A DNA stretch of 64,000 bases from an uncultured delta proteobacterium (GTDB taxonomy: Bacteria > Desulfobacterota > Binatia > UBA9968). This document shows positions 31,654-33,485 of this stretch, piece by piece. The position numbers were made by a program, and so were the translations under genes. Under the pieces are notes generated by a model. That model made no database searches, was not told the DNA's origin, and saw only the letters and a program-made list of their open reading frames with translations. Position 1 is the stretch's first letter; each line of letters begins with the position of its first letter. The stretch covers positions 1 to 64,000 of the forward strand of contig CAWJBB010000059.1 in assembly GCA_963840855.1 (NCBI GenBank), given 5' to 3'.

Positions 31654-32220
31654 CTACTCAATTCTCTTCGGAATACGGCCCGCCTCAACTTCCATCTTCA
31701 GCAGTGGGACCATGCCACCTGCTGCCAATTTTCTGATGATAAACGCCGGCATGGGCTCAAACTTCAGTTCAACACCGGAGGAAATGTTGGTGAGGAGTCC
31801 GTTTTCGAGATCAACCTCGAGCTCATCGCCTTGTTTAACCGCATCCAGAATCCCGGCAAGCTCAATTACCGGAAGCCCGCGTTCTATCGAATTTCTGAAA
31901 AAGTAGGGAGCCGACGTGGCGCAAAGCACGGCGGCCACGCCTGCCCCGAGGATAGACAGACAGGCGTGATCGTGATCATGTCCGAACCCCATGAATTCGC
32001 CGACTATGAAATCCCCCTTCCGAACCTTCTTGGGAAAATCCGGATCCATTTTGACCATACAGTACTTGCCGATCTCCTCCGCCGTATACACGCCTTTGGT
32101 CTGCAGCTCCTGGTAGGTCCGATAAGCGCATATCTCCCAGTCGACGTCCAAAACACCGCGAAACACCCAGGCGTTTCCTCGCATCGGCTTCATCTGTCTC
32201 AGCTTCCCATCCCCAGTCAT
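31654..32220 (-). CDS. LeuD-like aconitase-family small subunit (atypical)
   Basis: VRKGDFIVG, GAGVAAVL, FFRNSI..GLP and GDELEVDL motifs; GSSRE motif replaced by GHDHDH. Confidence 0.85.
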   Translation of the reverse strand: MTGDGKLRQMKPMRGNAWVFRGVLDVDWEICAYRTYQELQTKGVYTAEEIGKYCMVKMDPDFPKKVRKGDFIVGEFMGFGHDHDHACLSILGAGVAAVLCATSAPYFFRNSIERGLPVIELAGILDAVKQGDELEVDLENGLLTNISSGVELKFEPMPAFIIRKLAAGGMVPLLKMEVEAGRIPKRIE

Positions 32221-33485
32221 AGATATTTTCTCGGATCGGTGATTTGCCCCTCCAAACATGAGGCGGCCACGGTCATCGGGTTAGCCAAATAGATTTGCGC
32301 TTCTTCGCTGCCCATACGCCCAGGATAGTTCGTTTGACCCGAAGCGATGCACACTTCGTCAGCCGATAGCGGCGTATTCCCACCCCATTCCATGCCCTCG
32401 TTGGGCGTGGGCACAACACACTCGGCGTCGATGAAGGTGCTTATCAGGCCTTCAACCAGAGCCTGGCGAAGTATCTCTGTCGTGCCTGGAGTGATATTAA
32501 GCACTACGCGCGGATGAATTTTCCTGCCCTTTAGGACCCGCGCGCCCATGCGCAAGTGTTCGATCCAGCTCCCGGCGTCGCTGCCTATGAATCCCCGGTT
32601 GATGGGCGTTCCTTCCAACTCCTTGATCGATTTTACCAGATGGCGCTTCGGCGGGGGCACAACTTGAGGCTCCAACCGCCCAACGTCCAGCTCAAAAACT
32701 TTGGCATAACGCGCATCCGGATCGCTCACTTGAGGCTCAAAAACCTCGTTTGTGCGCGCGCGCACGTAGTCCAGAGTCTTTTGATCCGGATTGATAATCG
32801 CCGTCCAGGCGCCGGTAAAAATCGCCAGGGAACAGAGTGAGAACCGCTCCCCCATGCTCAAGTTATCAATAACCGGCCCAGTCCATTCGAGGGCACCCCC
32901 ACCTGCCCCCGTCGGTCCGATCTGCGATAAGAAATGTTCAAACAAGTCGCGCGCGCAAGTCCCGGGAGGCAAGTCTCCATTGACGACGATCTTAATGCTG
33001 CGGGGAACTCTCATCCAGGTTTTGCCGGTCATGAAATATTCCCCGCGGCCGTAGGAAAGCGTCGTAGCGAACGCGCCCAACGCGCCGCTACCGCTCGAAT
33101 GCCCATTAACCGCTTGTAAGTAAACCTCCCCAGGCAGCGCCCAAGCTCTTTCAGCGGAAAACATGTTTTCAATGCCGGATCGCCCCAGAGAATAAATATT
33201 CTCGTCAGGGATGCCGACCGCTTTCGCCCATTTTCTCGCGCGCATGCGGGAGCTCGCAGCATTGTGCGACGCTGTCGCGCCGAGGTGACCGTCGATAATC
33301 CTGATGCGCTTGGGATCGAAAACGCCGACTTTCCATTCCGCGCAGAATTCCACGCCGCCACGCAAGCTGCCCGCGTTTCCCATGGGCGTCGGACATCGGC
33401 TCCCGACTTCGATGTAGTCACCAGGTGAAACTTCTCCGCGGCCAGCGGCTTTGGCAAGAATTTTTTCAGTAATCGTTTTCCCCAT
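32217..33485 (-). CDS. LeuC-like aconitase-family large subunit (atypical, no Cys ligands)
   Basis: MGKTITEKILA, GALGAFA, SDPDARY, GFIGS, NYPGRMG and IYLANP motifs. Confidence 0.88.
   Translation of the reverse strand: MGKTITEKILAKAAGRGEVSPGDYIEVGSRCPTPMGNAGSLRGGVEFCAEWKVGVFDPKRIRIIDGHLGATASHNAASSRMRARKWAKAVGIPDENIYSLGRSGIENMFSAERAWALPGEVYLQAVNGHSSGSGALGAFATTLSYGRGEYFMTGKTWMRVPRSIKIVVNGDLPPGTCARDLFEHFLSQIGPTGAGGGALEWTGPVIDNLSMGERFSLCSLAIFTGAWTAIINPDQKTLDYVRARTNEVFEPQVSDPDARYAKVFELDVGRLEPQVVPPPKRHLVKSIKELEGTPINRGFIGSDAGSWIEHLRMGARVLKGRKIHPRVVLNITPGTTEILRQALVEGLISTFIDAECVVPTPNEGMEWGGNTPLSADEVCIASGQTNYPGRMGSEEAQIYLANPMTVAASCLEGQITDPRKYL

Follow-up and report, generated by a model that had tools for sequence, protein, structure and literature searches.

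The window analysed here, the first 64,000 nucleotides of contig CAWJBB010000059.1 (assembly GCA_963840855.1, an uncultured delta proteobacterium of the Binatia), carries a pair of overlapping genes for the large (LeuC-like) and small (LeuD-like) subunits of an aconitase-family protein in which all three [4Fe-4S]-binding cysteines of LeuC, HacA and aconitase are replaced, by Asp303, Glu363 and Glu366 (Table 1). Judged from its sequence, the pair would be an enzyme of aconitase fold whose cofactor pocket has been rebuilt without cysteines, and a sister clade predicted to be cluster-bearing is at hand for comparison. The replacement triad (hereafter D/E/E, as opposed to the C/C/C of that sister) arose once and is held under strong purifying selection. 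Aconitase-family dehydratases have a solvent-exposed [4Fe-4S] cluster and are textbook targets of oxygen and superoxide; the pair points to a cluster-free, possibly oxygen-proof version of this oxygen-sensitive enzyme type.

Identity of the gene pair and its active-site residues

The open reading frames (ORFs) as called spanned 32217-33485 (422 aa) and 31654-32259, both on the minus strand. The large subunit matched Pfam PF00330 across residues 87-413 (162.4 bits; cut-off, 28.7) and aligned along its full length with its counterpart in the isopropylmalate/citramalate isomerase of M. jannaschii (PDB 4NQY/4KP1; HMMER, E 1.4e-66). The small subunit, for which no Pfam match was found at E<=0.01, aligned with M. 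jannaschii LeuD (3VBA, residues 27-193; phmmer, E 3.2e-34) and has the LeuD-type swivel domain expected of the aconitase superfamily. Because an ATG at 32218-32220 overlaps the large-subunit TGA (32217-32219) as ATGA, and because the 188 aa read from it equal the length of the small-subunit homologues P0121, P0122 and P0125, we place the small-subunit start there as the most likely site, an upstream ATG at 32259 being less likely. With the start so corrected, the view of the first-pass annotation that both genes are intact and coupled held: each ORF is whole, and, to judge from the ATGA overlap, the pair looks translationally coupled.

Table 1. Coordinates of the gene pair, of its principal active-site residues and of a nearby dehydrogenase gene
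Feature	Position	Strand	Basis or remark
Large subunit, aconitase-family, LeuC-like, D/E/E type, 422 aa	32217..33485	minus	PF00330, NCBIfam and PDB 4NQY/4KP1 matches
Small subunit, LeuD-like, 188 aa	31654..32220	minus	3VBA alignment, TIGR02087, ATGA junction
Asp303 codon (GAC)	32577..32579	minus	Position of ligand Cys358 of pig aconitase
Glu363 codon (GAG)	32397..32399	minus	Position of ligand Cys421 of pig aconitase
Glu366 codon (GAA)	32388..32390	minus	Position of third ligand Cys in LeuC alignment
His81-Asp82-His83-Asp84-His85 loop	31966..31980	minus	Replaces Ser-Ser-Arg-Glu-His of LeuD; 3VBA alignment
Trp307	32565..32567	minus	Counts in Table 2
Asn107	33165..33167	minus	Position of aconitase His147; counts in Table 2
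Gln384-Thr385	32331..32336	minus	Positions of Asn446-Arg447; Thr-Cys in the C/C/C sister clade
TcuA-like FAD dehydrogenase	26976..28334	plus	NF006130, 367.1 bits against a cut-off of 369; possible pathway partner, suggested by recurrence

Alignment with LeuC (HMMER) set FIGSDAGS of the large subunit opposite FIGSCTNG, and PNEGMEWG opposite PSCSACMG. When pig aconitase (5ACN, in which the chain index matches the residue numbering of the literature) was used instead, D303 paired with Cys358 and E363 paired with Cys421. In this distant alignment an insertion takes in Cys424, and E366 matches the third cysteine only in the closer LeuC alignment. The three codons lie exactly where the first-pass annotation had put them, and its observation that the small subunit reads GFGHDHDHA where GCGSSREHA is expected was confirmed by the 3VBA alignment. 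The GSSRE loop, which holds the catalytic Ser of LeuD, is therefore absent, GHDHDH stands in its place, and small-subunit His81 occupies the position of the catalytic Ser of aconitase.

By these alignments, the loss appears wider than the cluster ligands and takes in most of the canonical catalytic and substrate-contact residues, whose functional roles are presumed from the aconitase literature. The 5ACN pairings are N107 with His147, N127-G128-H129 with Asp165-Ser166-His167, S219 with Asn258, F223 with Glu262, Q384-T385 with Asn446-Arg447, and R390 with Arg452, so that the contact residues His147, Asp165, Ser166, Asn258, Glu262, Asn446 and Arg447 are all altered. Four residues, H67, H129, R390 and N386, are kept at the positions of His101, His167, Arg452 and Asn448 (the H67-His101 equivalence being taken from the LeuC alignment), and they are invariant or nearly so in both the D/E/E and the C/C/C clade. 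Compared with the LeuCD/HacAB proteins of M. jannaschii (4KP1/4NQY, 3VBA, 4KP2 and 2PKP), then, the pair has the same fold and the same two-subunit layout over its full length, including the positions of His101, His167 and Arg452, but differs in its cluster cysteines, its small-subunit loop and its contact residues.

Neither subunit scored as a member of an established isomerase family. The large subunit fell below every NCBIfam LeuC/HacA cut-off (best, NF001614, 320.2 against 385; TIGR02083 LEU2, 275 against 610), as did the small subunit for its own models (TIGR02084, 101.6 against 245.85; TIGR02087, 99.8 against 108.95). Elsewhere in the same 7.1-Mb genome, contig 22 encodes a canonical LeuC (FIGSCTNS, GCSMC and SSNRNFIGRQG) with a canonical LeuD (GCGSSREHA), and contig 76 holds a separate aconitase-type match. 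Since a canonical Fe-S LeuCD is present, we regard the D/E/E pair as accessory.

Conservation and single origin of the triad

We compared the query with the best 120 of 3048 homologues that had E<=1e-20 among 8000 scored candidates. Seventy-three of these carry D/E/E, at 53-94% identity to the query, and 46 carry C/C/C, at 52-64% identity; no mixed triad occurred among the 120. Free variation at the three positions, which the first-pass annotation had allowed for, was thus not what the homologues showed, the rest after the D/E/E proteins being C/C/C with the exception of P0114. In this protein (seven member sequences) Glu takes the place of the first ligand, and the second loop is shortened and lacks E-x-x-E; it may be a further-diverged or decaying form.

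Within its clade the D/E/E triad is invariant, and the pattern cannot be put down to chance. Asp was present in 74 of 74 D/E/E rows of the alignment, the complete triad in all 17 of the D/E/E-type loci fetched, and the ligand codons varied synonymously (GAC/GAT, GAG/GAA) among the 14 coding sequences compared. The ratio of nonsynonymous to synonymous substitution rates (dN/dS), computed pairwise between the window gene and six relatives, was 0.050-0.065. Conservation was strongest in the active-site loops, the D/E/E features were kept across at least three phylum-level labels, and the two-gene heterodimeric form was retained in every fetched locus that reached far enough downstream; in L011, the small-subunit gene lies upstream of the large.

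A maximum-likelihood tree was built from 122 rows, comprising the query, 115 homologues and six more distant representatives; four sequences shorter than 400 aa and P0114 were left out. All 70 D/E/E rows lay on one side of a single branch with a Shimodaira-Hasegawa approximate likelihood-ratio test (SH-aLRT) value of 99, and the trait required one change. As all outgroups in the tree, and 134 of 140 representatives of the wider family, are C/C/C, we conclude that D/E/E is derived and arose once. By the genetic code, Cys to Asp needs two base changes and Cys to Glu three, such that the triad took at least eight substitutions.

One rival reading is a decaying or misassembled gene, and the genome does hold a second copy of the pair that is broken by several frame changes. 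The window copy, however, is intact, its dN/dS is about 0.05, and its features recur across at least three phylum-level labels; conservation, dN/dS and monophyly together refute the decay reading, to which we attach a negligible probability, and bear out the earlier claim that this is not a decaying gene. The second copy (contig 30 of the same genome, 177769-179029, recovered as L016 and L023) is 83% identical to the window pair at the nucleotide level over 1900 bases. Its protein matches fall in three reading frames and the LeuA-like gene downstream also looks frameshifted; the operon is either pseudogenised or poorly assembled at this place.

The metagenomic C/C/C sister clade shares with the D/E/E pair the GxGHDH loop, N127-G128-H129 and an NYPGRMG motif, and differs in keeping the three ligand cysteines together with Cys219, Cys385, His107 and Arg307. 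Residue by residue comparison of the two clades (Table 2) shows that the D/E/E branch lost five site cysteines, not three, and with them an Arg and a His that belong, by homology, to the second shell; three second-shell changes (His to Asn, Arg to Trp and Thr to Gln) accompany the triad. The C/C/C clade (46 proteins, and loci L027, L029 and L032-L035) combines its three ligand cysteines with Cys219/385 and the HDH loop, and presents an unusual cluster environment in itself.

Table 2. Positions of the large subunit at which the two clades differ
Position	D/E/E clade	C/C/C clade
107	Asn (67 of 74)	His (45 of 46)
219	Ser (74 of 74)	Cys (29 of 46)
307	Trp (74 of 74)	Arg (40 of 46)
381	Ala	Ser
384	Gln (73 of 74)	Thr (45 of 46)
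385	Thr (70 of 74)	Cys (43 of 46)

The small-subunit loop has a different history. GxGHDH was found in 120 of 121 small-subunit rows, with the complete HDHDH in 106, and related loops are encoded beside C/C/C large subunits (GYGHDHDH in L027, GYGHDHDT in L029, GYGHDHES in L032, GCGHDH in L033 and L034, and GCGHSH in L035). As the loop also adjoins large subunits that keep their cysteines, it predates the cysteine loss or is independent of it. The alignments point to two events: (i) an older remodelling of the active site, with the cluster ligands still present, and (ii) a later removal of the cysteines. The first-pass annotation had combined the swap and the loop in one concerted change. The part concerning the pocket stands, in that second-shell residues changed with the ligands, which fits a rebuilt cofactor pocket; that the loop belongs to that change was not supported.

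A proposed carboxylate site and its alternatives

We consider it a real possibility, although at something short of an even chance, that the pair is a cluster-free accessory aconitase-fold heterodimer in which a hard metal ion on D303, E363 and E366 takes over the Lewis-acid or organising role, with activity as a hydro-lyase or isomerase. The subfamily to which the pair belongs is distinct, being marked by the GxGHDH(DH) loop and by changes at most canonical substrate contacts; in one branch of it, Asp/Glu/Glu replaced the ligand cysteines, Ser and Thr replaced two nearby cysteines, and the three second-shell residues changed alongside. Under the proposal, the [4Fe-4S] cluster would be gone and its cavity would now be a carboxylate site, where the charge of the three buried carboxylates would most likely be balanced by a hard metal cation. 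The three ligand positions by definition enclose one small cavity, which gains three carboxylates while losing an Arg and a His and should be strongly negative; we favour a bound cation as the simplest means of stabilising it. With small-subunit His81 at the catalytic-Ser site, and H67 and H129 retained, the enzyme would act on an unsaturated or hydroxy di- or tricarboxylate, plausibly the product of a TcuA-like dehydrogenase.

This suggestion of a substrate class comes from the neighbouring genes, which were called with an ORF picker that takes account of GC content at third codon positions (GC3) and with tblastn. In the tricarballylate pathway, TcuA, a flavin adenine dinucleotide (FAD) dehydrogenase, yields cis-aconitate, which aconitase hydrates. 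A TcuA-family dehydrogenase (NF006130; 537-565 bits, cut-off 369) is encoded in the same operon as the D/E/E pair in L009, L010 and L012, and a TcuA-like gene lies within 10 kb in six of the 14 D/E/E loci for which 5 kb or more of flank was available, a count that includes the window (367.1 bits) and L013 (170 bits), both under the cut-off, as well as L011, where a partial copy was seen by tblastn only. About seven TcuA-like genes of at least 359 bits occur in the 7.1 Mb of the window's genome, for which chance proximity within 5 kb is about 1%. As in the tricarballylate pathway, a TcuA-family dehydrogenase is encoded alongside an aconitase-family hydratase and a tricarboxylate-binding protein; unlike in that pathway, the role of hydratase falls to a LeuCD-like pair that is dedicated and Cys-free.

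Other genes recur near the pair as well. Lyases of the PrpB/PEP-mutase family adjoin the pair in the C/C/C loci L027, L033 and L034 and in the D/E/E locus L011, and one lies 6.2 kb off in L013; a LeuA/CimA-like synthase is directly downstream in L002, L007 and the second copy of the window's genome; and tricarboxylate-type (TctC) or other solute-binding proteins recur nearby. Together, these genes suggest di- or tricarboxylate catabolism. We propose that a dehydrogenase forming an ene-carboxylate, a hydratase and a C-C lyase would make a coherent catabolic module for substituted di- and tricarboxylic acids, in a context that is variable.

Two of the operons have a further module immediately upstream. 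In L009 (4593-8301) a TcuA-like dehydrogenase is followed by a canonical-type LeuD and LeuC, the LeuC scoring 638 bits, above the cut-off; in L012 (6420-9357) the dehydrogenase is followed by an aconitase-family large subunit, no small subunit being annotated. The pairing of dehydrogenase and aconitase-family hydratase therefore occurs twice side by side, with and without the cluster cysteines.

Several points weigh against a metal-bearing, cluster-free hydratase. The convergence of the three carboxylates on one ion is predicted solely from their homology to cluster-ligand positions. The His/Asp loop is common to the whole subfamily and not specific to the D/E/E proteins. Since the genome also carries a regular Fe-S LeuCD and an aconitase, it shows no general avoidance of clusters. 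The TcuA-like gene of the window lies 3.3 kb from the pair, on the other strand, and scores just under the family cut-off, and the neighbours differ between loci and are absent from L001 and L014. Two more concern the cysteines around the site. By homology, three of them are still near it (Cys218 and Cys379 in the large subunit, Cys87 in the small), and Cys219 and Cys385 of the sister clade, at positions that in aconitase face the cluster or the substrate, could close the fourth iron, so that the ancestral cluster may have been fully ligated and non-catalytic.

From the last of these points starts the main rival account, which we think unlikely but which deserves serious weight. If the ancestral cluster was not a Lewis acid (being perhaps ligated by four cysteines), then D/E/E, with or without a structural ion, may simply fill the space it left, Trp307 helping to do so, and catalysis would rest with a His-rich constellation found throughout the subfamily (H67 and H129 of the large subunit; H81/D82/H83 of the small), possibly with a metal of its own. 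Both clades keep the HDH loop, H67 and H129, which agrees with such a plug, as does the frequency of Cys385 and Cys219 in the C/C/C clade (Table 2). Three buried carboxylates, with an Arg and a His lost as well, would nevertheless be ill suited to an inert plug; the triad is the same in 74 of 74 rows, which is stricter than space filling requires; and Cys at the Arg447 position is perhaps too short to reach a fourth iron.

The remaining cysteines raise the question of whether an Fe-S cluster is still bound, through C218, C379 and small-subunit C87 or through the carboxylates themselves. Of the 74 D/E/E rows, 65 have C218 and 73 have C379, and single Asp or Glu ligands to clusters occur in other proteins. 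Both cysteines, however, are equally conserved in the C/C/C clade, and C379 is also found in M. jannaschii LeuC and HacA, where it lies outside the three Cys that align with the aconitase ligands. We know of no precedent for a cluster with no Cys ligand among the original three, and we regard its retention here as very unlikely.

An aconitase fold can also be reused as a binding or regulatory protein, as in apo-IRP1 and IRP2. That the D/E/E pair is non-catalytic in this way would accord with the change of most canonical catalytic and substrate residues, and with the position of the window copy, which stands apart from metabolic genes and adjoins a recombinase. It accords poorly with the tight operons that join the pair to enzymes and transporters in L009, L010 and L012, with the retention of the two-gene heterodimer form, and with active-site loops that are the most conserved part of the protein; on balance we find it improbable.

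One last possibility, to which we give little credence, is that, with the cluster gone, D/E/E and Trp307 bind not a metal but a larger substrate of positive charge, by its ammonium or guanidinium group. Carboxylates are indeed combined with an aromatic residue, CapA/PGA_cap-family genes occur in six D/E/E loci, and amidohydrolase genes also recur nearby. By contrast, the TctC, TcuA-like, PrpB-like and LeuA-like neighbours indicate plain carboxylic acids, and no enzyme that handles amino groups is consistently adjacent.

Relatives, distribution and genomic surroundings

The taxonomic labels of the two clades differ. All 14 named C/C/C rows are labelled Chloroflexota or Dehalococcoidia, and the more distant C/C/C loci L033-L035 adjoin glycyl-radical enzymes, L033 and L034 also adjoining tungsten-type aldehyde (ferredoxin) oxidoreductases. 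The D/E/E members are labelled Binatia or 'delta proteobacterium', Betaproteobacteria/Burkholderiales, Micromonospora and other actinomycetes, and one D/E/E locus, L030, has genes for a luciferase-like monooxygenase and a PhyH dioxygenase close by. This handful of labels would fit an adaptation to oxygen; the window's genome itself retains a cluster-bearing LeuCD. A more specific history is that the [4Fe-4S] cluster was exchanged once for a carboxylate-bound metal, hydro-lyase activity being kept, and that gene transfer then carried the pair into aerobic soil lineages (Binatia-labelled metagenome-assembled genomes, Burkholderiales and actinomycetes) while the cluster-bearing sister stayed in genomes labelled Chloroflexota; we offer it tentatively and would not expect all of it to hold. 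A D/E/E clade under strong selection beside a close, cysteine-keeping sister amounts to a natural experiment on Fe-S replacement and on the need for the cluster. If the proposal is true, matched natural versions of one enzyme with and without a cluster would be available, and a cluster-free hydratase for di- and tricarboxylic acids would suit aerobic biocatalysis. A cultured Micromonospora strain (L013) carries the D/E/E pair, which is therefore directly testable.

Cluster loss in this family seems, from the sequences compared, to be recurrent. A second and larger clade of LeuC-like proteins (P0343 and P0394-P0512) has His, Thr and Asn at the ligand positions in 118 of 119 rows and is found in cultured Amycolatopsis, Pseudonocardia, Actinomadura, Saccharopolyspora and Geodermatophilus. 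Like the D/E/E proteins it lacks the three Cys; it retains the motifs DSH, FDH and RNFPGR, is only 34% identical to the query, and represents an independent loss. These proteins may be undescribed or may belong to the type of the cofactor-free maleate hydratase. Maleate hydratase is known as HbzIJ in Pseudomonas alcaligenes, and the two-subunit enzyme of P. pseudoalcaligenes is reportedly colourless and cofactor-independent. As a LeuCD-like hydratase of two subunits reported to need no cofactor, it would be a possible precedent for a cluster-free member of the aconitase family and could lower the novelty of the present pair; its substrates resemble those of LeuCD, whereas the contact residues are changed here. 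No NCBIfam model named for maleate or dimethylmaleate hydratase matched the pair, sequence searches of the PDB gave the Fe-S enzymes of M. jannaschii as the closest structures and no Cys-free LeuC-type chain, and a full-text literature search, beyond whose reach the maleate hydratase papers lay, turned up no account of a Cys-free LeuCD-type protein.

The subfamily is sparsely distributed. In a sample of 401 genomes of the window's phylum the gene was present in only 2, one of them the window's own; plasmid records held no relative above 36% identity; and clustering at 50% reduced the whole subfamily to about two representatives among 1.8 billion. A metagenome scan with generic patterns placed 10 of 80 kept loci in it, the Protein Atlas returned generic aconitase-family clusters only, and a cluster look-up gave no informative names. 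The window's closest relatives, L001 and L006, share about 90% nucleotide identity with it, and the similarity ends at the small-subunit stop codon on one side and about 57 bp before the large-subunit start on the other, with unrelated flanks. As it stops at the edges of the pair, we conclude that the two genes travel as a unit.

Scans of positions 31300-33900 found no sigma-70-like promoter site, and terminator-like sites only at the level of shuffled sequence. Metatranscriptome contigs from three soil or rhizosphere studies contain pieces of 150-319 bases that are 90-98% alike to the pair, one of them spanning the gene junction; they are at most a weak hint of transcription, as DNA carry-over or close relatives could also explain them.

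On the other side of the small-subunit gene, at 28556-30087 on the minus strand, the window holds a putative sulfate-exporter-family gene (YeiH/PF03601) that is split into two overlapping ORFs by a frameshift or an assembly error; Micromonospora L013 has an intact member of this family 335 bp upstream of its own D/E/E pair. In the opposite direction, a block at 34123-41234 is wedged between the aconitase-like pair and a ribosomal RNA (rRNA) operon. It begins with a large serine recombinase (34123-36219) and continues with an IS21-like element, whose transposase gene is apparently interrupted by another DDE transposase (37719-39269) and whose IstB gene is at 40410-41234. The rRNA operon is complete and on the minus strand (41517-47041), with 16S at 45484-47041, two tRNAs, 23S at 41764-44769 and 5S at 41517-41632.

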